A stretch of DNA of 64,000 nt from an uncultured Candidatus Saccharibacteria bacterium (GTDB lineage: Bacteria > Patescibacteriota > Minisyncoccia > Phycocordibacterales > CAYRGE01), in assembly GCA_964612415.1 (NCBI GenBank), contig CAZTCT010000001.1:137949-201948 (forward strand), given 5' to 3'. Below are positions 28,488 through 49,010 of the stretch, piece after piece (position 1 is the first letter of the stretch; every line of letters starts with the position of its first letter). The translations under genes were made by a program, and so were the position numbers. The notes below the pieces were generated by a model. The model was not told where the DNA came from and did no database searches. It was given only the letters and a program-made list of their open reading frames with translations.

Positions 28488-29099
28488 TTGCGTATGACAG
28501 AAGAAACAAAGAAAATTGAACAAGATACAAAAGGTGGTGCTCAGACGACTGAGAAGCCTACATCTCCTGCGCAAGGATTTGGCGGAAGAGAGCGTGGTCG
28601 TCGTGGCGGACGAGGAGGACGAGGCGGACGAGGAGGCAAAGGGCGGGACAAAGGTGGAGAGCGATACCGTCCAGAGTTTGATCAGAAGATGATCGATATC
28701 CGACGCGTAGCTCGTGTTGTTGCTGGAGGACGCCGCTTTAGCTTCCGGGTTTCTGTGGTTATCGGAAACAGGAAAGGTATGGTAGGCGTTGGTCTTGGCA
28801 AAGCGGGAGACACTTCTCTTGCCATTGATAAAGCTGTTCGCGATGCGCGAAAGAATGCGATCAACATTCAACTTACAAAAGAAATGTCTATCCCTCACAA
28901 GACTGAGGCAAAGTACGCAAGTGCTTCAGTAGAGATACGACCTGCTCCAGGAAAAGGTCTTGTCGCGGGAAGCTCTGTCCGTAGCGTACTTGATCTTGCG
29001 GGGGTAACAAACGTGACCGCAAAGATCCTGACTCGTAGTAAGAACAAGTTGAACAATGCCCGTGTTGCGGTTAAAGCACTCGAGAAGCTTAATGGATAG
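28488..29099 (+). CDS. rpsE: 30S ribosomal protein S5 with Gly/Arg-rich N-terminal extension; no rpmD (L30) follows
   Basis: uS5 core (VARVVAGGRRFSFRVSVVIGN) preceded by (GGR)n repeats. rplO starts 10 nt after its stop. Confidence 0.9.
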   Translation: MRMTEETKKIEQDTKGGAQTTEKPTSPAQGFGGRERGRRGGRGGRGGRGGKGRDKGGERYRPEFDQKMIDIRRVARVVAGGRRFSFRVSVVIGNRKGMVGVGLGKAGDTSLAIDKAVRDARKNAINIQLTKEMSIPHKTEAKYASASVEIRPAPGKGLVAGSSVRSVLDLAGVTNVTAKILTRSKNKLNNARVAVKALEKLNG

Positions 29100-29108
29100 A
29101 TAAAGCCT

Positions 29109-29564
29109 ATGAAAATTCACGATCTCAAAAGACATTCTCCTCTCAGAAAGAAAAAGCTCGTTGGCCGTGGAGGTAAAAGGGGTAAGACTTCTGGAAAGGG
29201 AACGAAAGGACAGAAAGCTCGCGCAGGACGCAAGATGCGCCCGGAATTGCGTGATCTTATCAAAAAGATTCCAAAGCTTCGCGGGTACAAGTTTGCTGGT
29301 GTGGAGAAACAACCCGTAAGTATTGTTAATGTTGCAACTCTGCAGAATGCATTTGCTGACAATGACGCAGTAAATCCGAAGACACTTATTGCGAAAAGGG
29401 CAATTTCTGTACGAAAGGGCACTACGCCAACCGTAAAAATTCTCGGTGACGGGGAACTTTCAAAGAAGCTCTCTGTCTCAGGGTGCCTCGTCTCTTCTTC
29501 TGCTCGTGATAAAATCACAAAGGCAGGAGGCAGTGTTGCGGAAATTGCGAAGGCTGCAAAATAG
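29109..29564 (+). CDS. rplO: 50S ribosomal protein L15
   Basis: GRGGKRGKTSGKGTKGQKARAG matches the uL15 N-terminus. Confidence 0.9.
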   Translation: MKIHDLKRHSPLRKKKLVGRGGKRGKTSGKGTKGQKARAGRKMRPELRDLIKKIPKLRGYKFAGVEKQPVSIVNVATLQNAFADNDAVNPKTLIAKRAISVRKGTTPTVKILGDGELSKKLSVSGCLVSSSARDKITKAGGSVAEIAKAAK

Positions 29565-29582
29565 CCCTTTGTAGACAGTTTT

Positions 29583-30845
29583 ATGCAGGAATTTACTCAC
29601 AAACTGAAAATCATACTTACTGACTCAGATCTACGAAAGCGGCTTTTCTTTGTCGCCGCTGCGCTCATTGTGTTTCGCTTTCTCGCGAACATTCCTATCC
29701 CGGCTGCAGATGGTGCGGCTCTCAATACAGACGGTTTCCTTGGATTTCTTAATATATTGACCGGAGGTGGGTTGTCCGCAATCTCTATTGTCATGCTCGG
29801 AGTAGGGCCGTACATTACCGCATCTATCGTGATGCAGCTTCTTACGGTGATGTCTCCAAAGCTTAAAGCTCTCTATCATGAGGAAGGTGAGGCTGGACGC
29901 CGAAGATTCATACAGTACTCACGTATTTTGACCATCCCACTTGCGATACTCCAAGGATGGGGACTTTTTTACTACCTGCAAACACGAGGCGTGCTTCCTG
30001 CTGAACTTTTGCCTTTTGATGTCTTTGTTAACATCGTCGTAATCGTTGCAGGCTCGCTTCTTTTGATGTGGATCGGAGAGTTGATCTCTGAATTTGGTAT
30101 CGGGAACGGCGTCTCTCTTATCATTTTTGCGGGTATCGTTGCCGCACTTCCTCAAACTCTCGCGCAACTTCAACTTACTTTCGTTGCACAGAGCATTCCT
30201 GTGTATCTCGGCTTTCTTGTAGCAGCATTCTTTATCGTAGCGGCGATCGTAGCTGTAACTGAAGCAGAGCGCCCTGTCCCAGTGACGTATGCTAAACGAG
30301 TAAGAGGGATGAAGGTATACGGAGGCACCTCTACATACTTGCCTTTGCGACTCAATCAAGCTGGCGTGATGCCTATCATTTTTGCGCTTTCATTCCTTAT
30401 CTTTCCGCAGGCATTTGTTAATATCCTTGCCCAGACAGCTTCTGGAGCGGTAAGCACTTTGGCAGGATGGGTAAGCGCCATTCTTTCAAATCAGGTCTTA
30501 TTCTCCATTCTTTATTTTGGTTTGGTCTTTATCTTCACCTTTTTCTACACCGCTGTTACCTTTGATCCAGATGCAATTGCAACAAACTTGCAGAAGAACG
30601 GTGCTTTCATTCCTGGCGTACGTCCAGGCAAGTCCACGGCAGAGTTTCTCGGAAAGGTACTCACACGCATCACCCTTGTTGGGGCGGTATTCTTGGGTAT
30701 CGTTGCAATCTTGCCATTTATCATGATCACAGTTACTGGAGAGCCAAACTTTGCTCTCGGCGGCACCGCACTCCTTATCGTTGTTGCGGTAATTCTTGAC
30801 CTCATCAAGAAAGTTGATGCGCAGATCGCGATGCGAGAGTACTAA
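29583..30845 (+). CDS. secY: Preprotein translocase subunit SecY
   Basis: 10-TM topology with the conserved GIQP-like plug/hinge region. 420 aa. Canonical position after rplO. Confidence 0.95.
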   Translation: MQEFTHKLKIILTDSDLRKRLFFVAAALIVFRFLANIPIPAADGAALNTDGFLGFLNILTGGGLSAISIVMLGVGPYITASIVMQLLTVMSPKLKALYHEEGEAGRRRFIQYSRILTIPLAILQGWGLFYYLQTRGVLPAELLPFDVFVNIVVIVAGSLLLMWIGELISEFGIGNGVSLIIFAGIVAALPQTLAQLQLTFVAQSIPVYLGFLVAAFFIVAAIVAVTEAERPVPVTYAKRVRGMKVYGGTSTYLPLRLNQAGVMPIIFALSFLIFPQAFVNILAQTASGAVSTLAGWVSAILSNQVLFSILYFGLVFIFTFFYTAVTFDPDAIATNLQKNGAFIPGVRPGKSTAEFLGKVLTRITLVGAVFLGIVAILPFIMITVTGEPNFALGGTALLIVVAVILDLIKKVDAQIAMREY

Positions 30846-30918
30846 TTTGTGTGCATTAGGGGTGCCACTTTCTATCTGCTACAATGGCAGTAGCGCCTCA
30901 TAAAAAAGGCGATTTACT

Positions 30919-31512
30919 ATGCATCCACAAGCTTTTATATTTTTCGGAATGTCGGGGTCTGGCAAAGGCACCCAAGCAAAACTTCTCAATGAATATCTCA
31001 AAGAGACCACCAAACGGGAGGTTCTCTATATTGAGACAGGGCAAAAGCTGCGCGAGTTCAAAGAGAATGAGAATCTCACCAGTCTCTTGGTTAGAGATAT
31101 TATGGATCACGGGGGTCTTATTCCTGAATTCTTGCCAATTTATCTTTGGACGGAGTTCTTAGTGCACCACTTTAGCGGCAATGAACACCTCCTTCTAGAC
31201 GGACTTTGTCGTCGCATTGATGAGGCACCTGTCCTTACGTCTGCGCTGAAGTTCTATGGCTTTAAAAGCCCATGTGTCATCTTTCTTAAAGTCTCTGACG
31301 AAACAGCATACAATCATATGAAAGCACGACAGAGGAAAGACGATACAGATGAGTATATAAAGAGCAGACTTTCTTGGTTTGGGCAGGAGGTTATGCCCGC
31401 GATAAACTATTTGAAGAAAAATGATTACTATAATTTCATTGAGGTTAACGGAGAGCAATCAATTGAAGACGTACACAAGGAAATCATAAGCAAAATTGTG
31501 ATGCCGGATTAA
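30919..31512 (+). CDS. adk: Adenylate kinase (short form)
   Basis: P-loop FFGMSGSGKGTQAKLL, in the conserved secY-adk-map arrangement. Confidence 0.75.
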   Translation: MHPQAFIFFGMSGSGKGTQAKLLNEYLKETTKREVLYIETGQKLREFKENENLTSLLVRDIMDHGGLIPEFLPIYLWTEFLVHHFSGNEHLLLDGLCRRIDEAPVLTSALKFYGFKSPCVIFLKVSDETAYNHMKARQRKDDTDEYIKSRLSWFGQEVMPAINYLKKNDYYNFIEVNGEQSIEDVHKEIISKIVMPD

Positions 31513-31513
31513 C

Positions 31514-32281
31514 ATGGGAATCGTTAAGACAAAAGAAGAAATTGAACATATTCGCGAAAGCGGCAGGCGTCTTGCTACTGTTTTAAAGGAGGTAATCTCT
31601 GCGACAAAGATAGGGGTGTCAACAAAAGACCTTGATGCGCTTGCAGAGCGGCTCATTCGCGAAGGTGGAGATACTCCTTCCTTTTTGCACTATCAGCCTG
31701 ATGGTGCTGAATATCCGTATCCAGCAACACTGTGTGTCTCTGTAAATGATGAGGTTGTTCATGGGATCCCTGGGGAGTATGTATTGCAAGACGGGGATAT
31801 TGTGGGACTTGATCTGGGACTCTGTCACAATGGCTTTCATACTGATATGGCCGAAACAGTCATCGTAGGGAATGCGCCAAGCGATCGTGTCGAAGCCCTT
31901 GTAAAAGCCACCAAGGAATCATTAAAGCTTGGGATTCAAGCTGCGCGTGCGGGCAATAAGGTCGGAGATATAGGAAGTGCGATAGAACAGGTGGTGCAAA
32001 AGACCGGATTTGGCATTGTGGAAGAGCTTGGGGGTCATGGTATTGGGAAAGACGTACACGAAGAGCCATTTGTTGCAAACTTCGGCACTGAAGGCACGGG
32101 GGTAGATCTCGTCTCCGGTATGGTACTTGCCATTGAGCCTATTGTGACGGAAGGGTCCCCGCGTGTTTTTTTGGATAAGGATGGGTATACATTCAAGACT
32201 CGTGATGGCAAACGTGCCGCACACTTTGAGCGGACTATTTTAGTGCGTGATGGTGCGCCAGAAATACTCACACCACTCTAA
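31514..32281 (+). CDS. map: Methionine aminopeptidase type I
   Basis: Pita-bread fold motifs (VHGIPG, DIVGLDLG, GHGIG). 255 aa. Confidence 0.9.
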   Translation: MGIVKTKEEIEHIRESGRRLATVLKEVISATKIGVSTKDLDALAERLIREGGDTPSFLHYQPDGAEYPYPATLCVSVNDEVVHGIPGEYVLQDGDIVGLDLGLCHNGFHTDMAETVIVGNAPSDRVEALVKATKESLKLGIQAARAGNKVGDIGSAIEQVVQKTGFGIVEELGGHGIGKDVHEEPFVANFGTEGTGVDLVSGMVLAIEPIVTEGSPRVFLDKDGYTFKTRDGKRAAHFERTILVRDGAPEILTPL

Positions 32282-32316
32282 TCTCTTTTGATATAAGTGG
32301 GCTATAATAGGAAGCA

Positions 32317-35079
32317 ATGGCATCTCAAAATTTTGAGCGTCCTTCGCAGCCACTTGCATCGCCTTCTGCTGAGGTGGAGTACTTAAGGCAGGGCGTGCAC
32401 AACAAAGAGCGCGCATACAGAAAAGAAGGGCAATCCTTTGAGCGTCCAGCTGTTGCCCGTGAAGTTGTTAAGGCATATGAAGCAGCGCCTGTTTCTTCGG
32501 TGCTGGATTCTTCGCTTGCAATGAAACGAAGTGAGATTGAAAAATCTGTGCTCCATCTCTCAGCTTCTCATGAAGAAAATGTTGAGAAACTTGCTTCTAT
32601 TATGGAAACAAAGGGAGTGAAGAATGCACTTGAGGTTGCGAAGCGGGCAGGCAATCCCCATCTTGAAGACGATTTCCATCGCTTTCTCATTCAATATCTT
32701 GTAGAAAACGGATCAATCGCGGGACTCAAAGAAGGGACGCCTCTTTTCAAAGCACTTCACATGAAGCTCTTTGAAGTCATTTTGCCGCATACAGATGATG
32801 CAGGGCGTGATAGAAGATTTTCTGAAATAGTATCAGCGATGGAGCAGTTTTATGCGGGGATGCTCTCAGTGTCTGATCAGGGAGAGAAGCTCAAGCAGCA
32901 CTTTACTATTGAACTTGCGCTTTCAAACTATACAGATGAGATGGTGTTGTACTCTGCAATACCCGGACACAAAGCAGAAATGTTCCAGAAACATCTCTTT
33001 GCTATTTTCCCAGATGCACGCATTACAGAGCGCAGAGAAGATTACAATCCTTTTAATTCCAACGGTATTTCGCTTGGCGCGGTTGGGAGATTCGCGGCGT
33101 CACCGCTGTTGCCTATTAAGACATATGAGTCTTTTGATGCTGATCCACTCAACGTCATTCTCAATGCGTTCTCAAAGATGAAGAAAGACGGGGAAGGGGC
33201 TGCAATACAGATTGTCATTGCACCTGCGGGAGATAAATTCAACAAACTTTATGAGTCTGCGGCGGAGAAGCTTAAGAAGGGTGCGTCGCTTAAAGAGGTG
33301 AGTGCTTCTGCAGGGGCAACCGTTGCGAAAGAATTTCTCGGCACCGCGCGCGATATGTTTTTTGGTTCCAAGACTCCAACCAAAGAAGAATCTAAAGAAG
33401 TAAATCAAAAAGCTGTAGAAGGAGTTACTGCCAAGATCTCTGCACCTATTGTATCGGTCAATATTCGTGTCGTTACATCCGCGGAGACGGAGTTGCGCGC
33501 CAGGACTATTCTTGAAAATCTTATCTCCGCATTCAATCAGTTCAATAATACCAATGGGAATTCATTCACATTTACTCCTTTAGGCAAAAAAGATGTTTCG
33601 CCACTTTTACACCAATTCACCTTCCGACTTTTTTCAGAGGACGAGAGTTTGCCGCTCAATACAAAAGAGTTAACCACGATATTCCATTTTCCGTCTGTTG
33701 GAGTGAAATCATCAGAGCTGAAGTATGCAAAAGTGAAATCATCCGCAGCTCCTCACGGGGCATCGGGGGAGGGCATTCTTTTGGGGGTGAACAATCATCA
33801 AGGCGTGCGTAATGAAATCCACTTTGCCCCAGAAGATAGGATGCGGCACTTCTATGTAATCGGTCAGACTGGCACAGGAAAGACCACACTTCTCAAGAAC
33901 ATGATTATACAAGACATAGAGGCAGGAGCTGGTGTCTGTATGATAGACCCACATGGAAGCGATATTGATGATATATTGGCGGCAATCCCACCTCATCGTG
34001 TGGACGATGTGGTCTACTTTGACCCTGCAAGCCCAATTCCTATGGGGCTTAACATGCTTGAATATGATCCTGCTCACCCAGAACAAAAGACTTTTGTAGT
34101 AAACGAGCTACTTTCTATATTTCAGAAACTCTATGCCAGTTCACCTGAATCAATGGGGCCAATGTTTGAGCAATATTTTCGCAATGCCACCATGCTTGTG
34201 ATTGAAGATCCGAGTACGGGTAGCACGCTGCTCGAGGTTTCTCGCGTGCTGTCTGATGCAAAGTTCCGCGCACTCAAACTCTCGCGTTGCCACAATCCTG
34301 TTGTCCTACAGTTTTGGAACGAGATTGCGTCCAAGTCTTCAGGGGAAGCCGCACTTGCCAATATCGTTCCTTACATCACCAACAAGTTTGATGTATTTCT
34401 CGCCAATGACATCATGAGGCCGATCATTGCCCAAGAAAAATCCGCGTTTAACTTCAGACAGATCATGGATGAGCGCAAGATATTCTTAGTCAATCTTGCA
34501 AAGGGGCGCATTGGAGACATCAACTCGCAACTTCTCGGACTCATTTTGGTAGGAAAAATTCTTATGGCGGCACTCTCTCGTGTAGATGCGCAAGAGCGTC
34601 CAGACTTCTATCTCTATATAGATGAATTTCAGAATGTCACGACCGATTCTATTGCAACGATTTTGTCTGAAGCCCGCAAATACAGGCTCGGGCTCAATGT
34701 CGCGCACCAATTCATTGCTCAATTGGTAGATCGTATTCGCGACGCTGTTTTTGGTAACGTGGGTTCTATGGCGGTATTTCGCGTGGGCACTGAAGATGCG
34801 CAATTCTTGGAAAAACAATTTTCTCCCACCTTTACTGCTCGTGATATCATGAATCTTGAGAACAGGAATGCGTACATGAAGATGCTTGTGAATGGGCAAC
34901 CGGAAGCACCTTTTAATATTGAGACCTTACCGCCTCCAAAAGGGGACATGGCGCTTGTGGCGAAGCTCAAAGAGATCTCATCGCTTACTTATGGACGTGA
35001 TAGGCAGGAGGTAGAGGCAGAAATCGCGAAAAAATACCAAAAAGCCCCTCCCGCACAGCCTTCCCAGCAAGGGGCTTGA
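32317..35079 (+). CDS. Large P-loop ATPase, conjugative coupling protein-like (TraG/TraD/VirD4, TrwB_AAD_bind/AAA_10 type) with approximately 500-aa N-terminal domain of unknown function and no predicted TM anchor
   Basis: Walker A GQTGTGKTT. 22 aa downstream is IDPHGS, resembling the x-DPKG-D of type IV coupling proteins. Walker B is YIDEFQNV, then SEARKYRLGLNVAHQF. The N-terminal half is hydrophilic with no TM helix. Confidence 0.5.
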   Translation: MASQNFERPSQPLASPSAEVEYLRQGVHNKERAYRKEGQSFERPAVAREVVKAYEAAPVSSVLDSSLAMKRSEIEKSVLHLSASHEENVEKLASIMETKGVKNALEVAKRAGNPHLEDDFHRFLIQYLVENGSIAGLKEGTPLFKALHMKLFEVILPHTDDAGRDRRFSEIVSAMEQFYAGMLSVSDQGEKLKQHFTIELALSNYTDEMVLYSAIPGHKAEMFQKHLFAIFPDARITERREDYNPFNSNGISLGAVGRFAASPLLPIKTYESFDADPLNVILNAFSKMKKDGEGAAIQIVIAPAGDKFNKLYESAAEKLKKGASLKEVSASAGATVAKEFLGTARDMFFGSKTPTKEESKEVNQKAVEGVTAKISAPIVSVNIRVVTSAETELRARTILENLISAFNQFNNTNGNSFTFTPLGKKDVSPLLHQFTFRLFSEDESLPLNTKELTTIFHFPSVGVKSSELKYAKVKSSAAPHGASGEGILLGVNNHQGVRNEIHFAPEDRMRHFYVIGQTGTGKTTLLKNMIIQDIEAGAGVCMIDPHGSDIDDILAAIPPHRVDDVVYFDPASPIPMGLNMLEYDPAHPEQKTFVVNELLSIFQKLYASSPESMGPMFEQYFRNATMLVIEDPSTGSTLLEVSRVLSDAKFRALKLSRCHNPVVLQFWNEIASKSSGEAALANIVPYITNKFDVFLANDIMRPIIAQEKSAFNFRQIMDERKIFLVNLAKGRIGDINSQLLGLILVGKILMAALSRVDAQERPDFYLYIDEFQNVTTDSIATILSEARKYRLGLNVAHQFIAQLVDRIRDAVFGNVGSMAVFRVGTEDAQFLEKQFSPTFTARDIMNLENRNAYMKMLVNGQPEAPFNIETLPPPKGDMALVAKLKEISSLTYGRDRQEVEAEIAKKYQKAPPAQPSQQGA

Positions 35080-35114
35080 TAAATATTAATTAATGTGATA
35101 TAATTAAAAACAAT

Positions 35115-38100
35115 ATGAGTATGGAAGGAAGGCCAAGGATGCCATCAGAAGAGACCCCAGAAGGGAGTGGAATGACTCCTGAAGATACTAATTTAGAGAA
35201 TACTGAACGTGTTGAGCCCGATCTCCACGGGGCCGCTGAAGAGATTTTAGAACAAAGGGGTGAAACTGGAATTGAAGTTCCAGTTATTTCTGTTGGAGAT
35301 GAAGCGCAAGAAGATCCAGAGGGAGGTGTTTTAGAAGGAGAAGCTCTTGATAATGCTTTGCGAGAAGCGTTGCACGGAGATGACGCAAGGTTTGAGCAGA
35401 ATGTTCAGATAGAAACAGGTGAAATTGCTCCGGTTCAAGGAGAGCATAACGACAAGTATGTACTTCATGAAGAAAATGGAGCTCGTGTCTGGCGTAAAAA
35501 TAACGGAGATGAATCTACTCCAATACAAGAGGGGACTCCTGATGCGCAAAACGGATCAGAAGCACTTATAAACGACGGAGCGCTTGAAGGACAAGAAGAA
35601 GGTGAGGGTACACCTATTGATGCGGATGCCGAAAAGGCACAAGAACCGGCGGTGAGCAAGGAAGAAGTCTCAGCTACCCCAGAAAGTATAGAACGAGAAC
35701 CAGGGTCTCTCGCTGTTGCGCTTGAAGAGACCGCACAGAGTGTTGTTGCAGAAAAACAAGAACGGATGGAGGAGGCCCTCTCTCCTGAACAAATAGCGAC
35801 ACCAGAATATGCCAAGAAGGCAATTGATCACGAACTTGCTCGTTTAGGTATAAACCCGGAGGACATTGCAAAAGACGAAGCTTTCAAAGAATTTAACGAA
35901 CTCTCAGATGGACAGAAGCTTCTTGTTGCGCGCGATCTCAATAGATTTGCTTTCTCTGAATCAAAAATAAAAGCGCACGAGGAATTTAATAAGAGAAACC
36001 AGGAAGAAGGTGTTTTGAATGTAAAGAGAATTGCCCGCAATGTATTCCGCAACGTTAATATCGCTTCGTACCGGAAAGCGGAACTTAAAAAAGCGATGGC
36101 AGGGGGTGTGGGTATGCACGGAGAGACACTCAAAGTTCTTGCAGAAAAAGCCAAGATTGGTCCTGAGGTAGAGATTGACTCAGCGGGGAATCTCAATGTT
36201 CAGTATGCAAAACTTGAAGGCCTTTCTGCTGAAGAACAGAAGGTTGTGAGATTTTACAACAAAGTTGCAGGTAATTATGGCCGAACTCCTGCTGAGTGGG
36301 GCAACAAGAGCGCAACGAATGAGCAGAAAATGGAGTATTGGGCGAATAAAGAGGAGTACAACAGGGCAAGAAAAGAACTCTTGGCCCTTAAAGAGGCGAA
36401 GAGTTCTTCTGAAGATGCCATGCAGTATGTGAATAGTCTTGATGCTCTTGTAACACAGGACCAGTTTTTAAATACAGTCTCAGGAGAGAAACTTGAAGAA
36501 TCAATGCAAAGAGCTGCGACAGGGAGTGCTCTATGGCAAGGGTGGAAGGAAACGATTACTGAGAGAGGCATGTATGCCGCAGTTGGTGCGGGGACACGCT
36601 TTGCTGTTGTAGGTGCATTGGGGATTGCTGCTGTCCCAGTGATGGGTGCTACAGTTGCGCCTGTTGCCGTAGGAGCTATTGCTGCTTCTGCGCTTGTGGG
36701 ACGATGGATTGGGCGAAGACGCATGAGACAAACTCTAGATGAAAAAGAGATGCTTCGCCGCCATGGAGACAAGGCGTCTGAAGAGCAGAAAAATGTCTGG
36801 AAGGACAAACTTGCAAAGACAACTCGTGCAACAGACGGAGGGGATATCGAAAGTTATAAAAAGGGAGCGAATGAGCGTGGCAAAATCTTGGAGAAGCGCT
36901 ATGCAGAGCGGGGTATTACCGTTTCTGCAGAAGCGCTTGATGACAAGCTTGGGTTAGCTTTTGCGCAATTTGAGAAGGAGGAAGATCCTAAAAAGCGCAG
37001 TAAGGCGCTGGTATCTTTACGTGCACGTATTGGCTATACACAAGACAAGATCGATAAAGGGGAGGTTAACTTTGGCAATGGCGTAGACCAGCTTAAAAAT
37101 CAACTTGACCTCATTCAGGGGCTCTCAAGAGCACGCGCTCACTCAGTGATAGAAGACCCTGACGTTAAAAAAGAACTTGACGAGAAGATGGGCGAGCTTA
37201 CGAAGTATCAGGGGCACATGCGCAGCCGAGTTGAACAAGCCGAGAAGAAGAGGATCAACGCTGCGGGGAGGACAGGGGCTCTTATTGCAGCTACATTTAC
37301 TGGTGCATCTTATGCAATTACAGACTTTGTTATGTCTGGGAAAGGCGCTAACCTTGCAGATAATGCAAAGGAGTTTGCTGGGCATTTGAAAGCAAAACTT
37401 CCATATGGGCTTGGAGACGAAGAGCTCCACCGAGAGCTTGAGAGTTCAGCTGCTCGAGTCTATAACCCAGGTTCAGAGAATGGGAGCAATCTTTGGAATA
37501 TGATAGAACACGATCTTCGGGGAGATCTCAAAGGACTTGAGGGACATGAACGCGATGCCGTTATCATGGCTGGCTTGAATAAGTTTCGTGAACTTACCCC
37601 AGAGCAACTCAAAGAGATTGGTTTTTCATCAGCAAGTGGAGAAAATAATGTTGAGAATATATTAAAACTTGTGAGACCTACAGATCGCATTAATTTTTCG
37701 CGAGTTTACAATACAGCAGATCTGCACAATATTCTTGGACGTATGCACGCAGTGGCTCTTGAGAAGGGGGAAATGCCAGTCCCGGCGACAGGTTCTTCTG
37801 TTGTGGCAGAGAGTGCCACTTCATCTGGTACGCCAACTGCCCCAGCTCATGTGCCTAGTGGGGGGAAGGCGCCTTCTGTGAGCGAACTACCTTCGTCTGC
37901 AGGCAAAAGCGTACCACCTGAAGCTGCTGACATGCCACTTACGACACAGCGCGCTATTCCATCAGAGCCAAAAGGGAATGGTTCTATATTTAGTACTGAC
38001 GAGATTGAAAAGTATCGAGGATCAGGCGGCGGGAAAGTTGAACAAGTTGCGTATACTCCTCGGACTCCACAGGAAATCGTCAAAATCCCATCAAGTGATT

Positions 38101-39386
38101 TTGAACGACAGGTTATTTATACCGAGCTTAATAATGATGTGAATCTGATCGTGCCAGGTGGGGCAAGGGGCGCAAACTGGATGTATGTAAAAGGTGAATC
38201 AGTGGAGCGTCTAATGAATACTCGCCTTCAAGCCCCTCGTGCCGGGTATGTACCACAGCAGAGGAGTCCTTGGTCAGTAAGCGGAAGAATTCATATTGGT
38301 GGTCGCCATTCGGCATCTCAAGATTTTCTTAGAATTGAACATCGGCCCACACCTCCACCGCCAGTATATAGAGGTCCATTGCCAGTAGGACTTCGTTCTC
38401 CAGAGACAGTGGCGAATTTGCAAAGTTACATCAATGCCCTTGAAGAGCAGAGCGGTCTTTCATGGAGAAGGAGCGGCTACTCTGTTGAAAGATATATATA
38501 TGAGGCGACCAAAGTTTCAGGAAGGATGAACAATGTACCTGGCTTTGGCGACAACCCGATTCCTGGACCCGGCGGAGGACTCACCAGATCAAGCGGATGG
38601 TCTCAGGCTATTGCTGAGAACATGCGCAATAATGTCAACCAAGTTCCTAATGCAAAAGTTGCTGATGAATTTGTCAGAGACCATTTCAATGAATTCACAT
38701 CGCAATACTACTCTTCTCCAGAAGGAAGGAGTGATGCGGACCTCAATGTGATGCTTCAGAATGCGTACAAGATGCGCACCTCTCTTAATGAGCTCAACGA
38801 CAAATTTGGTATTTCTGATTATCAGGCGCGAAGCGAGCAGATTGAGGGAATCATCACAAAACTAGAGCGACAGACAGGGGCATCAAGTGGGGCTCCTCGC
38901 ATCGTGGCACGGGTATATGAAGAAAAGGATTTAACACCTTCTTCATTTAGCAAATTAGAACCTGGAGAGATTAAGGATATTCTCAATGTGCCTGTAGGCG
39001 AAGAAGAAGGGAAAGAGGTCATGAAGAATGTTGCCGATGAAGTAAATAAAATCTTCCAAACAAATGGCGCGCCAAAGAATGGGTTTGATTATGGAGAAGG
39101 AATTGGAAATATGAGTGCTGACTGGGAGGATATGAAAGGGAGGACTATAGATGAAATTCTCCATGCCAAGCTTCCTACCTCAAAGATCGTCGACGGCAAA
39201 ATCATTCCTCCAGAGGAGGGGGTCGGCATTCACTCTACGAAATTTTTGACGAAGGTACGCGCAGAGCTTATCCCCAAACTAGAATACCAAAGCGGTCTTC
39301 CTGCACATGGGCCAACTACACTTGAAGATTATATTAAGGATGCCCACGTACTTATAAAACGCGGACCTGACTTTAAGCCTGAATAA
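35115..39386 (+). CDS. Giant (1423 aa) protein: strongly acidic N-terminal region, central double-TM hairpin, long charged/coiled-coil and Pro/Gly-containing C-terminal region; function unknown
   Basis: Uninterrupted ORF. The first approximately 200 aa are Glu/Asp-rich. The hydrophobic segment GMYAAVGAGTRFAVVGALGIAAVPVMGATVAPVAVGAIAASALVGRWIGRRR would make two TM helices. It sits immediately downstream of the coupling-ATPase-like gene. Confidence 0.5.
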   Translation: MSMEGRPRMPSEETPEGSGMTPEDTNLENTERVEPDLHGAAEEILEQRGETGIEVPVISVGDEAQEDPEGGVLEGEALDNALREALHGDDARFEQNVQIETGEIAPVQGEHNDKYVLHEENGARVWRKNNGDESTPIQEGTPDAQNGSEALINDGALEGQEEGEGTPIDADAEKAQEPAVSKEEVSATPESIEREPGSLAVALEETAQSVVAEKQERMEEALSPEQIATPEYAKKAIDHELARLGINPEDIAKDEAFKEFNELSDGQKLLVARDLNRFAFSESKIKAHEEFNKRNQEEGVLNVKRIARNVFRNVNIASYRKAELKKAMAGGVGMHGETLKVLAEKAKIGPEVEIDSAGNLNVQYAKLEGLSAEEQKVVRFYNKVAGNYGRTPAEWGNKSATNEQKMEYWANKEEYNRARKELLALKEAKSSSEDAMQYVNSLDALVTQDQFLNTVSGEKLEESMQRAATGSALWQGWKETITERGMYAAVGAGTRFAVVGALGIAAVPVMGATVAPVAVGAIAASALVGRWIGRRRMRQTLDEKEMLRRHGDKASEEQKNVWKDKLAKTTRATDGGDIESYKKGANERGKILEKRYAERGITVSAEALDDKLGLAFAQFEKEEDPKKRSKALVSLRARIGYTQDKIDKGEVNFGNGVDQLKNQLDLIQGLSRARAHSVIEDPDVKKELDEKMGELTKYQGHMRSRVEQAEKKRINAAGRTGALIAATFTGASYAITDFVMSGKGANLADNAKEFAGHLKAKLPYGLGDEELHRELESSAARVYNPGSENGSNLWNMIEHDLRGDLKGLEGHERDAVIMAGLNKFRELTPEQLKEIGFSSASGENNVENILKLVRPTDRINFSRVYNTADLHNILGRMHAVALEKGEMPVPATGSSVVAESATSSGTPTAPAHVPSGGKAPSVSELPSSAGKSVPPEAADMPLTTQRAIPSEPKGNGSIFSTDEIEKYRGSGGGKVEQVAYTPRTPQEIVKIPSSDFERQVIYTELNNDVNLIVPGGARGANWMYVKGESVERLMNTRLQAPRAGYVPQQRSPWSVSGRIHIGGRHSASQDFLRIEHRPTPPPPVYRGPLPVGLRSPETVANLQSYINALEEQSGLSWRRSGYSVERYIYEATKVSGRMNNVPGFGDNPIPGPGGGLTRSSGWSQAIAENMRNNVNQVPNAKVADEFVRDHFNEFTSQYYSSPEGRSDADLNVMLQNAYKMRTSLNELNDKFGISDYQARSEQIEGIITKLERQTGASSGAPRIVARVYEEKDLTPSSFSKLEPGEIKDILNVPVGEEEGKEVMKNVADEVNKIFQTNGAPKNGFDYGEGIGNMSADWEDMKGRTIDEILHAKLPTSKIVDGKIIPPEEGVGIHSTKFLTKVRAELIPKLEYQSGLPAHGPTTLEDYIKDAHVLIKRGPDFKPE

Positions 39387-39396
39387 ATTTTCTTTT

Positions 39397-39424
39397 TGAC
39401 AAAGTCTAGTCTTTGGCTAGAATA
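39397..39424 (+). promoter_or_regulatory. Sigma70-like promoter TTGACA-N16-TAGAAT for ndk (near-leaderless)
   Basis: The -10 ends 8 nt before the ndk ATG and no SD is present. Confidence 0.45.
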
Positions 39425-39432
39425 GTGCCCAT

Positions 39433-39909
39433 ATGACACACCCAAAAGAAGAACAGACACTTATCCTTATTAAGCCAGATGCTATTCATCGTGCGCTTGT
39501 AGGTGAGATCATCAAACGCTTTGAGATGAAAGGGCTCAAGATTATTGGCATGAAGATGATACAGCTAGAGGATGTCTTACTTGAATCACACTATGCACAC
39601 ATCAAAGACAAGCCATTTTTCGTGGGCATCAAGAAGTTTATGAAATCGTCTCCTGTGGTAGGCCTTGTGCTCTCGGGTATTAACGCGATATCGGCAACAC
39701 GTATCATTGTAGGACCCACGAAGGGATATGAAGCGGACGCGGGGAGCATTCGTGGAGATTTGTCTCTCTCAATCCAGTCTAATGTTGTGCATGCATCAGA
39801 TAGCGCTGAAGCTGCCAAGGAAGAGATCAAGAGATTCTTTAAAGATGAAGAGTTGTTCGAGTACGATAGAAGTGATTTCAACTACATTTACGCAGACGAG
39901 ACATTCTAG
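39433..39909 (+). CDS. ndk: Nucleoside diphosphate kinase
   Basis: LILIKPDAIHRALVGEIIKRFEMKGLKI and the active-site region NVVHASDS. 158 aa. Confidence 0.9.
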   Translation: MTHPKEEQTLILIKPDAIHRALVGEIIKRFEMKGLKIIGMKMIQLEDVLLESHYAHIKDKPFFVGIKKFMKSSPVVGLVLSGINAISATRIIVGPTKGYEADAGSIRGDLSLSIQSNVVHASDSAEAAKEEIKRFFKDEELFEYDRSDFNYIYADETF

Positions 39910-39944
39910 ATTTGCTCGGGGTTTCTTTGAAGGTGTATAATACT

Positions 39945-40135
39945 CTCGGGTTGCTTGGATTAATAAGTCCACTTTTGACACTCGTTAGGGAGTCTCTATT
40001 GGAACGCGCAGGGCATGCCGAAAGGCGTACCGAATGAGCGTTCTTGCGGGCACCCACCTTTATATTTAAAAGGGGGCTTCCGTACTCCAAGCAACCCTTT
40101 ACAACACTCGCCCGTGCGGCGAGTTTTGTATTTCA
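39945..40135 (+). ncRNA. Candidate structured small RNA (approximately 190 nt) with its own promoter, 11-bp 5'/3' closing stem and intrinsic terminator; identity unassigned (6S- or SRP-RNA-like size)
   Basis: Extended -10 promoter TTGCTC-N18-TATAAT at about 39912-39941. The 5' gggttgcttgg (39947-39957) is complementary to ccaagcaaccc (40086-40096). There is an internal GNRA-capped helix (ggcatgcc-gaaa-ggcgtacc) and a terminator ctcgcc-cgtg-cggcgag-ttttgtattt at 40107-40135. No ORF is present. Confidence 0.3.
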
Positions 40136-40158
40136 AGCTTTTTTGCATAAATTATTAT

Positions 40159-40545
40159 ATGTCTTTACGTAATTTTCCTACAGAACTTGCATATCTTGTT
40201 CTCGGCATATTTATCGTGAATACAGCGGCGGTATTTTGGGGCTGGTATTACATAGTTCCCTCTATTGATATCCCACTTCATCTGGCTGGAGGATTTTGGG
40301 TTGGGGGAAGTGGCATGTGGGGCTACTACGCGTTTTCCAAAAAAATATCTAAAAAACTCAGCGTCACGATAGTGGGGTCAATGCTGATTGCCATTGTCAT
40401 TGGCGCTCTTTGGGAGGGGTTTGAGTTCTATACCAATTTATTACTCGCTCGAGAGCCTTTCAGCGCGCTTGATACGATGGGAGACATGATATGCGATATA
40501 ATTGGCGGAGTATGTGCGGGCTGGTATATTTCTAGAAAACCATAA
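40159..40545 (+). CDS. Small polytopic membrane protein (approximately 128 aa, 4 TM; VanZ-like size/topology)
   Basis: Start chosen at MSLRNFPTELAYLVLGIFIVN, after the candidate RNA terminator. The upstream part of the track ORF overlaps that RNA and is rejected. Confidence 0.4.
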   Translation: MSLRNFPTELAYLVLGIFIVNTAAVFWGWYYIVPSIDIPLHLAGGFWVGGSGMWGYYAFSKKISKKLSVTIVGSMLIAIVIGALWEGFEFYTNLLLAREPFSALDTMGDMICDIIGGVCAGWYISRKP

Positions 40546-40553
40546 ACGAATAC

Positions 40554-41924
40554 ATGGACAAAAAACTCTCAATTACTTTTCATGGAGGAGCGCGTAAGGT
40601 TACCGGATCAAACTTTCTCGTCACTACACCCGAAATATCTTTTCTGGTTGACTGCGGACTCTTTCAAGGAGAGCAGGGTGATTCAGCACGGAATCAAGAG
40701 AAATTCCCATACGATCCGTCTTCTATCGGGGCCTTGTTTGTGACGCACGCGCATCTTGACCATATTGGGCGCATTCCGGCGCTAGTGAGCTCAGGATTTT
40801 CTGGGCCAATCTATTCAACACATCCAACGCGTGATATGGCAGAGCTTGTTTTTGCCGACGGGGTGCGCATCTTTGAATACAACGAAAGGACAAAAGGTAT
40901 TAAGCCGCCTTACACAAAAGCAGATGTTGCCAAGACGTTGAGTCTTTGGCAGCCGATTGAATACCACAAAAAAATAGAACTTAGTCCAAATGTAACTGTT
41001 TCCTTATTGAACTCAGGGCACATTCTTGGTTCTGCCATGGTGGATATTTCTTATGCAGGGAAGAGGGTTGTGTTCACTGGCGATCTTGGCAATTCTCCTG
41101 CGCCACTTCTGCAAGATGTTGAGTCAATTAAGGGGGCTGACTACTTAGTCATGGAAAGTGTATATGGCAATCGTACGCATGAAGGGCGAGAAGACAGAGT
41201 GCGTATTTTTGAAGAGATCATTGAGGAGACCATCAAGGCGAAGGGTGTGCTCATGATCCCCGCGTTTTCTATTGAGAGGACACAAAATCTTCTTTTTGAA
41301 CTTGATCACCTTGTGACCTCAAAGAAAATTCCGGACGTGCCTGTATTTTTGGACTCACCACTTGCGATAGGAATCACGGAAATTTACAAGAAATATCGCG
41401 GTTCATTTAATGAACGAGCACAGGACATCTTAGCAAATGATGGGACTGTCTTTGAATTCCCACGTCTCAAAAAGACCAAAGAAGTGGAAGACTCTATTGC
41501 CATTAATGACGCACCAGCACCCAAGATCATCATTGCAGGGTCGGGCATGTCGGATGGGGGACGCATTATGCATCATGAGAAGCGCTATCTGGCAGATCCT
41601 CACAATACGCTGCTACTTGCGGGGTTTCAGGCCGTGGGGACGCTTGGACGTGCACTTTCGGACGGGGCAAAAGAGGTTGAAATTGATGGAGCGAAAATTC
41701 CCGTTCGAGCACGTATTATCGCACTGCGCGGGTATTCTGCTCACTGTGACTCAGACGGGCTGCTTGAATTTGTGAACAATGGAGCTGATTCGCTCAAGCA
41801 GGTGTTTGTCGTGTTGGGAGAGCCGGAGAGCTCGTTTTTCCTTGCACAACGGATACAAGATTATTTGGGCGTAAAAGCTACGGTGCCAAATCAAGGGGAT
41901 ACAGTTGAGTTGCAATTTGATTAA
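40554..41924 (+). CDS. MBL-fold beta-CASP family RNA-metabolising hydrolase (RNase J / CPSF73-like)
   Basis: HAHLDHIGRIP (HxHxDH), a beta-CASP segment, and C-terminal RGYSAHCD (motif C). 456 aa. Confidence 0.75.
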   Translation: MDKKLSITFHGGARKVTGSNFLVTTPEISFLVDCGLFQGEQGDSARNQEKFPYDPSSIGALFVTHAHLDHIGRIPALVSSGFSGPIYSTHPTRDMAELVFADGVRIFEYNERTKGIKPPYTKADVAKTLSLWQPIEYHKKIELSPNVTVSLLNSGHILGSAMVDISYAGKRVVFTGDLGNSPAPLLQDVESIKGADYLVMESVYGNRTHEGREDRVRIFEEIIEETIKAKGVLMIPAFSIERTQNLLFELDHLVTSKKIPDVPVFLDSPLAIGITEIYKKYRGSFNERAQDILANDGTVFEFPRLKKTKEVEDSIAINDAPAPKIIIAGSGMSDGGRIMHHEKRYLADPHNTLLLAGFQAVGTLGRALSDGAKEVEIDGAKIPVRARIIALRGYSAHCDSDGLLEFVNNGADSLKQVFVVLGEPESSFFLAQRIQDYLGVKATVPNQGDTVELQFD

Positions 41925-41944
41925 GAGCACGAGATGATACTAGT

Positions 41945-42571
41945 ATGAATGAAAAAAAGCATGACCACCTAAAAGTAAAAATATGTGTTTCTGGCGCAGC
42001 TGAGACAGGACACTGTGGTATGGATGCGCTTGATCGCGCCAAAGATCTCGGACGAGAGATTATACGCAACAATGCAGTGATCGTGACTGGTGCAACCACA
42101 GGGTTCCCCATGTGGTCAGCTATTGGCGCGAAGGAAGAAGGCGGAATTTCAATCGGGCTTTCTCCTGCATCAACCGAGAAAGAGCATGTTGAAAGCTATC
42201 GTCTCCCACTAGACTACATGGACGTCATCATTTATACAGGATTTGGATATTCGGGGCGCAACCTTCTTCTTACCCGTTCGTCTGATGCGGTGATAGTGGG
42301 GTGTGGACGCATTGGGACCATCAACGAATTTACGATTGCGTATGAGGACCATAAGCCCATCGGCATCTTACAGGGGAGCTGGGAGACAGACGAGGTTATC
42401 AAGCTTATCTTAGATAAAGGGCATCGTGGCGATGGGAATGTTGTTTTCGATACTAATCCGAAGCGTCTTGTGGAGAAAGTGCTCAAGCTCGTAGAGGAGC
42501 AGAAGACGAGAGATAATTACGTCTATAAGAATGTAAAGATTGAAGGAGGAGGAGGGAAGCGAATCTACTAA
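41945..42571 (+). CDS. TIGR00725/LOG-family Rossmann-fold protein (SLOG superfamily)
   Basis: ICVSGAAETGH...VIVTGATTGFPMWSAIGAKEEGGISIGLSP...IYTGFGYSGRNLLL pattern of LOG/TIGR00725 proteins. Confidence 0.55.
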   Translation: MNEKKHDHLKVKICVSGAAETGHCGMDALDRAKDLGREIIRNNAVIVTGATTGFPMWSAIGAKEEGGISIGLSPASTEKEHVESYRLPLDYMDVIIYTGFGYSGRNLLLTRSSDAVIVGCGRIGTINEFTIAYEDHKPIGILQGSWETDEVIKLILDKGHRGDGNVVFDTNPKRLVEKVLKLVEEQKTRDNYVYKNVKIEGGGGKRIY

Positions 42572-42583
42572 AAAAGTGCAATA

Positions 42584-42618
42584 AAAAACGGCTCAACCGA
42601 TCGGTTGAGCCGTTTTTC
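42584..42618. terminator. Palindromic terminator element, family copy 3 (aaaaaacggctcaaccgatcggttgagccgttttt)
   Basis: Identical core to copy 2, between convergent genes 41945-42571(+) and rplT(-). Confidence 0.65.
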
Positions 42619-42634
42619 CATCCCAAGAGAGGGG

Positions 42635-42982
42635 TTATTTCTTCACCTCTGCGACGATCTTTGCGAACTCTCCTTCGTGGTTCTCTGCGATATCAGCGAG
42701 GATTTTGCGATCAAGTGCGATATTTTTCTTCTTGAGAGCTCCGATGAAGGCGCTGTATGAGAGTCCAAGTGGGCGTACTGCTGCACCGATCTTGATCTGC
42801 CATAGGCGGCGATAGTCATTCTTTTTATCGCGGCGGTGTGCTCGCGCGTGTGAACCCGCGTGTACGATCGCCTCGTGTGCCTGGCGCTCCTTTTTGCTGC
42901 GGCCAAATTTATATCCCTTAACTTGCTTAAGGACATTTCGGCGGCGCTTTAATGCTACTTTTCCTCCTTTTACTCGTGGCAT
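42635..42982 (-). CDS. rplT: 50S ribosomal protein L20
   Basis: MPRVKGGKVALKRRRNVLKQVKGYKFGR matches bL20. Confidence 0.9.
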   Translation of the reverse strand: MPRVKGGKVALKRRRNVLKQVKGYKFGRSKKERQAHEAIVHAGSHARAHRRDKKNDYRRLWQIKIGAAVRPLGLSYSAFIGALKKKNIALDRKILADIAENHEGEFAKIVAEVKK

Positions 42983-43006
42983 GGTAGTTTCGTTACGTTC
43001 TTAATA

Positions 43007-43189
43007 TTAAGAGGGGATAAATCGGCTTTGAGCCTTCTTCTTCATAATAAAGTGTGTGGTGCGCTTCTTGTTGAGCTGAACTTTGCGGCTCTTCTTTGCG
43101 TTGAAGTGGTCGTGTCCTGGCTTACGCGCAACAAGCTTGCCCGTACGGGTTACCTTCAATCGCTTTGTATATGATTTGTTTGTCTTCAT
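43007..43189 (-). CDS. rpmI: 50S ribosomal protein L35
   Basis: MKTNKSYTKRLKVTRTGKLVARKPGHDHFNAKKS matches bL35. Confidence 0.85.
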   Translation of the reverse strand: MKTNKSYTKRLKVTRTGKLVARKPGHDHFNAKKSRKVQLNKKRTTHFIMKKKAQSRFIPS

Positions 43190-43190
43190 G

Positions 43191-43721
43191 TTATTTTTTC
43201 CCTCTCTCTATAACGATAGTGAAGCCTTTTGGGCTTTTCTTTGCTTCTTCGGCAATCTTATACTCCTCGGAAATAAGGTTCAAAATACGTGAAAGTCGTT
43301 CCTCTTGGAAAGTCTTGTCTGTGTATTTTGCGCGCCCTGGGAGGAAAAGATCTATTTTTACGCGGTGTCCCTCGGTAAGCCATTTTGAGGCCATCTTGGC
43401 CTTAAGTCCCAAGTCATGTTCGGATGTCCCGATCTTGACCTGAACCGTCTTGGTCTCAGTGACATGAGCTCGTGTCTTGGTATCCCTCTGCTTTTTGTTC
43501 TGTTGGTATTGGTACTTCCCGTAGTCCATTATCTTGGCAACAGGAGGTACTGCCGTCGGGGATATCTCGATTAGGTCCAATCCTCTCTCCTTTGCTGTCG
43601 CGAGGGCTTCTTTAAGGGAGATAACACCAAAGTTCTCACCTTCCTCTCCTATAACGCGAAGCTCTTTGGAGCGGATCTGCTCATTTATAGGCGTCCTTTT
43701 ATAGCTATCTTTCGGGGTCAA
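43191..43721 (-). CDS. infC: Translation initiation factor IF-3
   Basis: INEQIRSKELRVIGEEGENFGV... plus the C-terminal domain. Canonical infC-rpmI-rplT order. The true start may be a non-ATG codon. Confidence 0.9.
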   Translation of the reverse strand: MTPKDSYKRTPINEQIRSKELRVIGEEGENFGVISLKEALATAKERGLDLIEISPTAVPPVAKIMDYGKYQYQQNKKQRDTKTRAHVTETKTVQVKIGTSEHDLGLKAKMASKWLTEGHRVKIDLFLPGRAKYTDKTFQEERLSRILNLISEEYKIAEEAKKSPKGFTIVIERGKK

Positions 43722-48782: not shown

Positions 48783-48817
48783 AAAAACGGCTCAACCGAG
48801 CGGTTGAGCCGTTTTTT
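48783..48817. terminator. Palindromic terminator element, family copy 4 (aaaaacggctcaaccgagcggttgagccgtttttt)
   Basis: Same stem as copies 2 and 3 with one central substitution (gatc to gagc), between ftsH(+) and the tRNA(-). Confidence 0.6.
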
Positions 48818-48818
48818 C

Positions 48819-48894
48819 TGGTCCGCCTGGCAGGACTCGAACCTACAACCACGGAGATATAAGCTCCGTGCTCTAACCATTGAGCTACAGGCGG
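48819..48894 (-). tRNA. tRNA with anticodon UAU (tRNA-Ile, AUA-reading); CCA encoded
   Basis: Cloverleaf: CCGCCUG-UA-GCUC-AAUGGUUA-GAGC-A-CGGAG-CUUAUAU-CUCCG-UGGUU-GUAGG-UUCGAGU-CCUGC-CAGGCGG-A-CCA. 7/4/5/5-bp stems, U33, A37. Confidence 0.7.
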
Positions 48895-49010
48895 CTTCTG
48901 GCTTGACTATAGTATACAAAAAGTATTGTCCGAGCAATGCATGTTTGTATCCACAGCAAGAAATAAATCTCTCCTATCTAAGAGGGTATAATGTGGGCAT
49001 ATACTTTTTT

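Follow-up and report, generated by a model that had tools for sequence, protein, structure and literature searches.

Type IV coupling proteins (T4CPs) without a transmembrane domain (TMD) are a described subfamily, as exemplified by TraJ/Orf10 of pIP501 with its small membrane protein TraI (PMC7434980). For the Patescibacteria, or Candidate Phyla Radiation (CPR), a 2025 survey (Quiñonero-Coronel et al.; PMC12102498) counts 5,713 VirD4-like T4CP homologues in 2,918 genomes, most of them remote from virB4 and only 148 near it, finds few relaxases and suggests a possible exaptation. The other closest known systems are long ATPases from plasmids of monoderm bacteria, proteins from Bacillus and Geobacillus phages, and VirB4 (TrwK of R388; the C-terminal domain of Thermoanaerobacter VirB4). 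The locus compared with them here belongs to contig CAZTCT010000001.1, of which a stretch of 64 kb was analysed (the window). This stretch is a Parcubacteria/Paceibacteria (CPR) chromosome segment in which a long + strand ribosomal cluster, extending from S12 to L15 and then to SecY-Adk-Map, is followed by the genes of an ATPase and of a very large membrane protein, hereafter the giant. Both open reading frames (ORFs) have the strand, positions and lengths that a sequence-only reading had given them; in the source record, the giant starts at the second Met (1421 aa).

32317..35079, + strand: ATPase, 920 aa, coupling-protein family without transmembrane (TM) segment (DUF8128 plus P-loop nucleotide-binding domain, NBD)
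35115..39386, + strand: giant, 1423-aa membrane protein of a small CPR-only family

The interpretation preferred here, with a probability of about 0.55, is that of a domesticated motor of the T4CP family with a lineage-specific giant as partner. The novelty first seen in a coupling protein outside a type IV secretion system (T4SS) cluster, and in its lack of an anchor, does not hold, remote T4CP homologues being already surveyed (PMC12102498) and TMD-less ones already described (PMC7434980). What is new is the map-ATPase-ndk position, found in about half of the 80 Paceibacteria species compared, the conservation of the ATPase at the level of Map, and the apparent replacement of the TM anchor by a domain of ~145 aa that exists as a separate ORF beside a TM-anchored relative.

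Family placement and architecture of the ATPase

The coupling-protein-like character attributed to the ATPase is upheld by profile searches. TrwB_AAD_bind, TraG-D_C and DUF87 match 44/44 homologues and T4SS-DNA_transf 15/44, these matches being short and weak; the ATPase itself scores 23.9 bits against TrwB_AAD_bind (cut-off 20.5) and 20.7 against TraG-D_C, just under the cut-off of 22. Its best NCBIfam matches are TraD, VirD4-like and TrbC, those to TraD and VirD4-like lying far below the cut-offs, and a comparison of the family profile with PDB sequences brings TrwB first (2e-4) and DotL second. With hhalign, the family profile matches an ATPase from a B. subtilis plasmid at 99.8% (E 1.3e-27) over 653 columns, which include both the N-domain and the NBD. 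The gene of this plasmid ATPase is the first of a conjugation operon and is immediately followed by a replication-relaxation (relaxase) gene, while no hhalign similarity is found between the family profile and the VirB4-like ATPase of the same plasmid; VirD4-type and VirB4-type proteins are thus separated by sequence, since the match is to the relaxase-adjacent ATPase and not to its VirB4-like neighbor. On an Embleya plasmid, the order is PrgI, VirB4-like protein, ATPase homologue (annotated as T4SS conjugative DNA transfer family), relaxase and NlpC/P60. Among relatives with a characterized context, such relaxase-adjacent long ATPases of Bacillus and Streptomycetaceae are the closest. Judged by sequence, the ATPase is a member of the VirD4/TrwB coupling-protein family, and its DUF8128 N-domain is inherited from monoderm conjugative systems.

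It can also be supposed that the ATPase is functionally VirB4-like, i.e., an assembly or energizing subunit bound to the membrane via partners and not a substrate receptor. Such a role would fit its two-domain soluble architecture, which resembles VirB4, and the top PDB matches of the ATPase model in Foldseek, which are full-length TrwK/VirB4 over ~900 columns (E 5e-12). Nevertheless, it is made very improbable by the absence of CagE_TrbE_VirB, the family of the VirB4 N-domain, in all homologues (0/44 matching), by the opposite hhalign results for the two ATPases of the B. subtilis plasmid, and by a best PDB sequence match that is TrwB and not VirB4.

Regarding other ATPase families, the searches for T4CP profiles found T4CP signatures, and the ATPase has neither the alpha, beta and gamma domains nor the four-TM N-terminus of FtsK/SpoIIIE; FtsK, TcpA and EccC score about 13-14 against its model. 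A defence-system reading was rejected, PADLOC giving just mad8 and weak HerA matches without partner genes, and so was a lead to the Obg C-terminal domain, whose weak matches at the ATPase N-terminus (E about 0.1) are not repeated in the 44 homologues.

In the AlphaFold2 model of the ATPase (mean pLDDT, i.e., predicted local distance difference test, of 80), the C-terminal half falls in the VirB4/VirD4/HerA clade. The arrangement of Walker A, DP(K/H)G and Walker B recognized by the sequence-only reading is present as GQTGTGKT, DPHG and YIDEFQ, and the following features can be delimited.

32317..32751, + strand: N-terminal helical extension (aa 1-145), in the ~920-aa Paceibacteria subfamily only
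32752..33756, + strand: DUF8128 domain (aa ~146-480), alpha/beta fold without assignment to a solved structure
33757..34956, + strand: RecA-like NBD of the VirD4/VirB4/HerA clade (aa ~481-880)
33862..33885, + strand: Walker A GQTGTGKT (aa 516-523), invariant in 44 homologues
33946..33957, + strand: DPHG motif (aa 544-547), aligned with DPNG of TrwB, invariant in 44 homologues
34081..34476, + strand: all-helical insertion in the NBD (aa ~589-720), from the secondary structure of the model
34612..34632, + strand: Walker B LYIDEFQ (aa 766-772; YIDEFQ 767-772), with D769 and E770 invariant in 44 homologues

From the model, the helical insertion appears to occupy the position of the all-alpha domain (AAD) of T4CPs. 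As had been noticed, there is no N-terminal TM anchor: no hydrophobic segment is found at the N-terminus or anywhere in aa 1-700, and the sole hydrophobic 19-mer belongs to a core strand/helix (aa 735-758). The N-domain of ~500 aa is hydrophilic as described, but it is largely catalogued, ~330 aa of it corresponding to DUF8128 (PF26449), a Pfam assignment precomputed on the identical protein P0001 and on all of the best 120 homologues.

The long plasmid ATPases (WP_345805471 from the B. subtilis 27.5-kb plasmid, 885 aa; WP_331738717 from Embleya, 812 aa) are homologous to the window ATPase over DUF8128 and the NBD, with 24-29% identity in tblastn over query aa 207-873. They are found in operons with a relaxase and a VirB4-like ATPase, whereas the window ATPase is encoded between map and ndk and has an extra N-terminal extension. 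Full-length homologues with DUF8128 and NBD also occur in Bacillus/Geobacillus phages (phrog_5156, phage G gp156, GBK2_32; PHROG profile 5.8e-88, Foldseek 1.4e-38). The phage proteins differ from the window ATPase in having no N-terminal extension and, for GBK2_32 (Geobacillus phage GBK2, L085 6797-9367), in a location between lysis and recombination modules. In Bacillus phage G (BFVD G3MBM1), the neighboring gp155 also matches the ATPase model structurally (E 6e-10), which suggests a putative two-ATPase module in this phage.

In many CPR relatives, which measure ~800 aa, the match starts at query aa ~145-170 and the N-terminus displays a single TM helix. The extension of the window ATPase, modelled as helices at aa 16-130 with a pLDDT of about 80-90, resembles a standalone 153-aa ORF (L003:12896-13357, L numbers designating related loci), which is followed, after one intervening gene, by that of an 819-aa TM-anchored DUF8128 ATPase. 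Both have the motif ETKGVxxAxxVA…DxxH, and the similarity is reciprocal in jackhmmer (E 1.3e-13 among about 20,000 ORFs), with 5e-7 in pairwise BLASTP and 1e-3 in hhalign; extension and 153-aa protein are probably homologous. Because the counterpart of the extension is a separate small protein encoded beside an anchored ATPase, the architecture looks like a Rosetta-stone fusion: the soluble ATPase would have taken up, as its N-terminus, a small protein that was a partner of the anchored one. Some TM-anchored DUF8128 relatives (P0171, P0172, P0180, P0187) harbor C-terminal Pro/Ala/Ser/Gln-rich tails of 600-1,200 aa, whose ends share the conserved motif …(K)GEVYVDE(x)GNV(x)(x)GE.

The missing anchor is a variant of a known arrangement and no anomaly, because TMD-less T4CPs acting via a separate membrane protein are a recognized subfamily. 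TraJ/Orf10 of pIP501 is likewise a VirD4-family NBD without N-terminal anchor, for which recruitment to the membrane via a separate membrane protein is expected (PMC7434980). The likeness is one of description, and the window ATPase differs by being chromosomal, single-copy-like and conserved at a housekeeping level, by combining DUF8128 with the fused extension of ~145 aa, and by having no relaxase or T4SS genes nearby.

Conservation and genomic position of the ATPase gene

The ATPase family comprises 21,337 clusters at 50% identity with E ≤ 1e-3, and 5,528 with E ≤ 1e-30. The best 120 matches in a set of 5.8 billion proteins are all 53-83% identical, the named ones coming from Patescibacteria, and at least 591 pattern matches in species-representative genomes encode a relative (591/600 among the matches listed). 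The ATPase almost certainly belongs to the same population as the surveyed Patescibacteria T4CP homologues; in the accessible part of that survey, neither the TM-less ~920-aa Paceibacteria subfamily and its synteny after map, nor the fused domain of the 153-aa type and the association with giants, are described (PMC12102498).

Synteny was followed in the best 80 matches, all from Paceibacteria-type metagenome-assembled genomes. The ATPase gene is preceded by map in 38/80 loci and flanked by both map and ndk in 32/80; in 7 further loci ndk is downstream and the upstream sequence is too short to judge, and 24/80 have neither map nor ndk despite an upstream flank of ≥5 kb. To the question whether the pair always follows map, the answer is that the ATPase does so in about half of these species and that most ATPase loci do not have the giant. 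In the same genomes, identity to the window proteins is 53% for the ATPase (over 920 aa), 53% for Map, 51% for L15 and 59% for SecY, the value for the ATPase being biased upward as the 80 loci were picked as best ATPase matches. On these sequences, the ATPase is as conserved as Map, which is unusually tight for a conjugation-derived protein.

The neighboring genes assigned with Pfam are as follows.

29109-29564, + strand: L15
29583-30845, + strand: SecY
30919-31512, + strand: Adk
31514-32281, + strand: Map
39433-39909, + strand: Ndk

The spacers between Map and ATPase, ATPase and giant, and giant and Ndk measure 35, 35 and 46 nt. On the 3' side of Ndk are encoded a small DUF2238-type membrane protein (ORF 40015-40545, whose start is probably Met49, giving 128 aa at 40159-40545), an RNase J-like β-CASP hydrolase and a SLOG/LDcluster4 protein, with L20, L35 and IF3 on the opposite strand (block at 39433-43721). 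This block, from ndk to SLOG/LDcluster4 and with L20, L35 and IF3 on the opposite strand, is kept 3' of the ATPase in many Paceibacteria (L001, L010, L014, L018, L022, L029 and others). In 15 species (L002:2236-2937 and 14 other loci), adk and map are separated by a gene of ~228 aa for an AA_kinase (UMP-kinase-like), and in L077 by a 1755-aa orphan ORF.

The pair had been described as standing where the alpha operon is expected after map. The absence stands, as InfA, L36, S13, S11, S4, RpoA-NTD and L17 from E. coli give no tblastn match in the 64-kb window or in 84 related loci, while the controls Ndk, L20 and S12 matched as expected. A local replacement has to be abandoned: since tblastn finds no alpha-operon gene within 10 kb at any related locus, the separation of the spc and alpha operons is a clade-wide arrangement, and the ATPase does not replace the alpha genes locally.

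With regard to the origin of the locus, homologues on plasmids and in Bacillus phages (phrog_5156, phage G gp156, GBK2_32), as well as a gene in L067 for a 693-aa protein with a PcfJ-like domain (pCF10 conjugative-plasmid family; L067:5972-8053) between map and the ATPase, might point to the remnant of an integrated conjugative element or prophage; an assembly chimera was the other suspicion. Yet GC content is flat across the region, and no integrase, relaxase, flanking or att-like repeats, or flanking tRNA were found around the ATPase and giant. Dozens of species have the ATPase at this same place, with a 53% identity that tracks Map, and independent assemblies agree: over 13,994 bp, window positions 28605-42598 with all junctions are reproduced at 99.986% identity by the Logan assembly of run ERR15459717, and a separate JGI (Joint Genome Institute) contig encodes an 83%-identical ATPase with adk-map 5' and, 36 nt 3', a long ORF running off the contig. 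The locus is no assembly artefact, and a mobile-element remnant or chimera, effectively refuted by synteny and independent assembly, has a negligible probability.

The conserved order adk-(AA_kinase)-map-ATPase-ndk-DUF2238-RNase J-like-SLOG may also be read as the setting of a motor for import or scavenging of nucleic acids, kept with nucleotide-salvage genes and feeding a cell unable to make nucleotides. T4CP relatives bind and move DNA (PMC7434980), and a ComEC gene is present in the window. Against such an import function, adk and map belong to the spc operon of most bacteria, so that this part of the theme is inherited; the ATPase is located elsewhere in about 30% of the species, and a comEC deletion had no effect on viability in the one CPR organism tested (PMC12857230). 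An import motor is, on balance, highly unlikely.

Promoter-like sites were located before the ATPase, the giant and ndk as consensus matches.

32303..32308, + strand: TATAAT −10-like box, 8 nt upstream of the ATPase ATG, without canonical −35
35076..35104, + strand: TTGATA-17-TATAAT with TG extension (11/12 match), ending 10 nt before the giant ATG
39396..39423, + strand: TTGACA-16-TAGAAT, ending 9 nt before the ndk ATG

No −10-like boxes precede the genes inside the ribosomal operon, and the three short spacers contain no terminator-like site. This pattern suggests that ATPase, giant and ndk may be separate, nearly leaderless transcription units with possible read-through. Co-expression of the pair with translation genes, which had been anticipated, finds no support, each of these three genes having its own −10-like box 8-10 nt before the ATG. 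A TATAAT-like box is found 7-10 nt before the start of recJ, rnhA, ATPase, giant, ndk, smpB and recG (start codons at 6429, 8182, 32317, 35115 and 39433 on the + strand, and at 46730 and 60523 on the − strand), most of them without Shine-Dalgarno, suggesting that leaderless mRNAs could be frequent in this organism.

The giant protein and its linkage to the ATPase

No Pfam, NCBIfam, PADLOC or PHROG family was found for the giant, and its only distant relative in the 5.8 billion proteins is P0122 (25% identity). By locus-based searches, the family consists of six distinct loci, which have in common a core of ~550 aa as well as two hydrophobic segments; toward both termini the sequences are unrelated or mosaic.

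35115..35714, + strand: acidic N-terminus, 200 aa (52 D+E, 13 K+R), not conserved in homologues
35787..37424, + strand: conserved core (aa ~225-770) with LSxGQxLLV, GGxxxHxETL, IPxEW, NQFLN and VNFGxxxxxxxNQxxL
36570..36716, + strand: 49-aa hydrophobic stretch (aa 486-534), probable helical hairpin, then RRRMR
37260..37337, + strand: second, weaker hydrophobic segment (aa 716-741, GALIAATFTGASYAITDF), kept in the family
38352..38519, + strand: module copy 1, ~50-80 aa (…LQSYINALEEQSGL…VERYIYEA, aa ~1080-1135)
39135..39386, + strand: module copy 2 (…LIPKLEYQSGL…LEDYIKDA, aa ~1341-1423), apparent, by eye

The composition of the N-terminus agrees with the extreme acidity reported for its first ~200 aa. 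Of the single central double-TM hairpin that had been proposed, the central stretch of 49 aa is retained, ~10 aa longer than in the homologues, with the weaker segment at aa 716-741 as an addition. The positive cluster that follows the first stretch suggests an N-in hairpin and, past the second segment, a possible outside location of the last ~680 aa. A Pro/Ser/Thr-rich stretch lies at about aa 900-1100. The module (…L..Y…LE..SGL…T..EY(I/F)..A) is also C-terminal in the ATPase-adjacent L035:7336-9924 (862 aa) and L048:6707-9913, which match each other in BLASTP (6.8e-7), the match to the window giant being weak (0.15). An AlphaFold2 model of the core, made from two sequences, is unusable (mean pLDDT 44).

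Among the six loci of the giant family, four have a DUF8128 ATPase within 2 kb, one has not, and one is cut by a contig end. The order is ATPase-giant in the window and map-giant-ATPase in L048 and L090. In L003 (=L004/L091), in a non-ribosomal context, the giant is followed by a DUF5663 protein, the 153-aa protein, a PD-(D/E)XK protein and the TM-anchored ATPase, the giant P0122 being 1.4 kb upstream of this 819-aa DUF8128 ATPase. Since the giant family and the 153-aa domain stand together there with another subtype of the ATPase, L003 is the strongest argument for what would be a functional link. Seen in full (L003:1-18784), the locus encodes the giant of 1610 aa, PDDEXK_3, the ATPase and then an N-terminally anchored Laminin_G_3 protein of at least 735 aa, and the module may be present there in complete form.

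ORFs ≥800 aa are somewhat enriched at position −1 of the ATPase (5/76 vs 13/1306 elsewhere). The other orphan giants beside the ATPase, in L002 (1613 aa), L025 (1645 aa) and L077 (1755 aa), have no Pfam domains and no detectable similarity to the window giant; the sole link seen among such proteins is the C-terminal module common to L035 and L048. The small DUF5663 protein, which stands beside giants in L002 and L003, was not found in the window. The giant is neither a fixed partner nor an obligatory subunit of the ATPase.

Proposed mechanism, secretion context and significance

The preferred reading can be laid out stepwise. The ATPase would be a cytoplasmic translocation ATPase of the T4CP (VirD4/TrwB/TraD) family, putatively active and of hexameric type, and would correspond to the "long" form encoded next to the relaxase on conjugative plasmids of monoderm bacteria, with DUF8128 and a P-loop domain containing a helical insertion. 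In Paceibacteria, its gene would no longer belong to a mobile element and would be fixed in the chromosome under housekeeping-level constraint, the membrane anchor of the ~800-aa relatives being replaced, through gene fusion, by the helical domain of ~145 aa. The ATPase presumably docks on a membrane partner, as do other TMD-less coupling proteins, and would use ATP to hand a substrate, more likely a protein than relaxase-bound DNA, to an envelope channel. A dedicated partner could serve as this channel, or else the Patescibacteria T4SS, whose genes lie elsewhere. The giant, from a rare and fast-evolving CPR family, would probably be a lineage-specific and non-obligatory partner, serving as membrane adaptor or as cargo.

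Several observations weigh against this scheme. Besides the structural matches to VirB4 and the selection bias in the identity values, the similarity between the extension and the 153-aa protein is moderate, and no relaxase, VirB4 or VirB6 is found among the scanned ORFs of the 64-kb window, a few ORFs of <300 aa being left out of the scan. The "housekeeping" label is uneasy because the T4CP homologue was reported as non-essential in the one CPR organism with transposon sequencing, a Saccharibacterium (PMC12102498). Most ATPase loci have no giant neighbor; the giant homologue of L089 has no ATPase within 10 kb, and that of L088 follows recA and is cut by the contig end. Furthermore, the ATPase is flanked by a hot spot of unrelated variable genes (DnaE, PcfJ-like, lipase-like, other orphan giants), and adjacency in the map-ndk locus could be incidental for this reason.

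The two proteins would then be mere neighbors, the giant being a fast-evolving CPR membrane or surface protein in a permissive spot without functional tie to the ATPase. The gaps are indeed variable across species (3 nt to 6 kb from Map to ATPase, 5 nt to 3.5 kb from ATPase to Ndk), with unrelated inserts; ndk lies ≤260 nt from the ATPase in 26/40 loci, hence without a giant there; the giants of L089 and L088 stand apart from the ATPase, and the window giant has its own strong promoter-like site. On the other hand, the giant family is found beside two subtypes of DUF8128 ATPase, including the non-ribosomal context of L003, where it clusters with the very 153-aa protein whose counterpart forms, by apparent fusion, the N-terminus of the ATPase in the lineage of the window. 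Moreover, two of the four loci found via the giant alone (L090, L003) are ATPase-adjacent, against an estimated chance expectation of roughly 1-2%. Incidental adjacency is a serious possibility that nonetheless falls short of being probable.

Regarding the secretion context, the ATPase might be the remote coupling protein of the canonical Patescibacteria T4SS (VirB4, VirB6, VirB8 and VirB2-like pilins, usually near dnaA), recruiting effectors for host-directed secretion, with the giant as irrelevant or as cargo. Its T4CP family membership (signatures in 44/44 homologues; hhalign 99.8%) is in line with such a role, and so are T4CP genes often far from virB4 and CPR T4SS loci that include VirD4-like components (PMC12102498, PMC12857230). 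The window also encodes a 1375-aa protein with a T4SS_pilin domain. Conversely, with about two T4CP homologues per genome (5,713/2,918) and only 148 near virB4 (PMC12102498), not all can be cognate; this subfamily has lost the TM anchor and gained a fused domain, and there is no T4SS core gene in the 64-kb window. A canonical T4SS function is somewhat unlikely on these grounds.

The competence genes and the VirB2-like pilin domain reported elsewhere in the window were both recovered: ComEC (Competence and DUF4131) is encoded at 8899-10398, a metallo-β-lactamase in an ORF of its own at 10974-11885, and PilM at 62826-63947, and in the 1375-aa protein (48804-52931, + strand) the T4SS_pilin (VirB2-like) domain at aa 118-183 is accompanied by PA14, dockerin and EF-hand. 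As a tRNA-Ile(TAT) identified by ARAGORN at 48819-48894 on the − strand overlaps its TTG start, the true start of this ORF is probably further downstream. Directly after it, a 1762-aa surface-type protein (53018-58306, + strand) displays two PA14, Big_7, fn3 and two PG_binding_1 domains.

Dependence on other cells characterizes the CPR/Patescibacteria, whose T4SS is the first one reported to be essential for its own carrier bacterium. Regarding the abundant orphan VirD4-like genes of this group, the Map-level conservation of the ATPase, its site at the end of the spc operon, the loss of the anchor by apparent fusion and the recurring giant family offer handles on their role. It could even be speculated, at a decidedly low probability, that a domesticated, core and near-essential motor, freed of its membrane anchor by fusion with a small partner protein, constitutes with interchangeable, fast-evolving giants a minimal ATP-driven module for export or surface display, independent of the canonical VirB4 T4SS. 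If the giants are cargo or adaptors, some of the many orphan giant proteins encoded by CPR genomes would for the first time be placed in a functional context, and if the module reading is true, ultra-small monoderm bacteria would possess a trans-envelope machine of a new kind.

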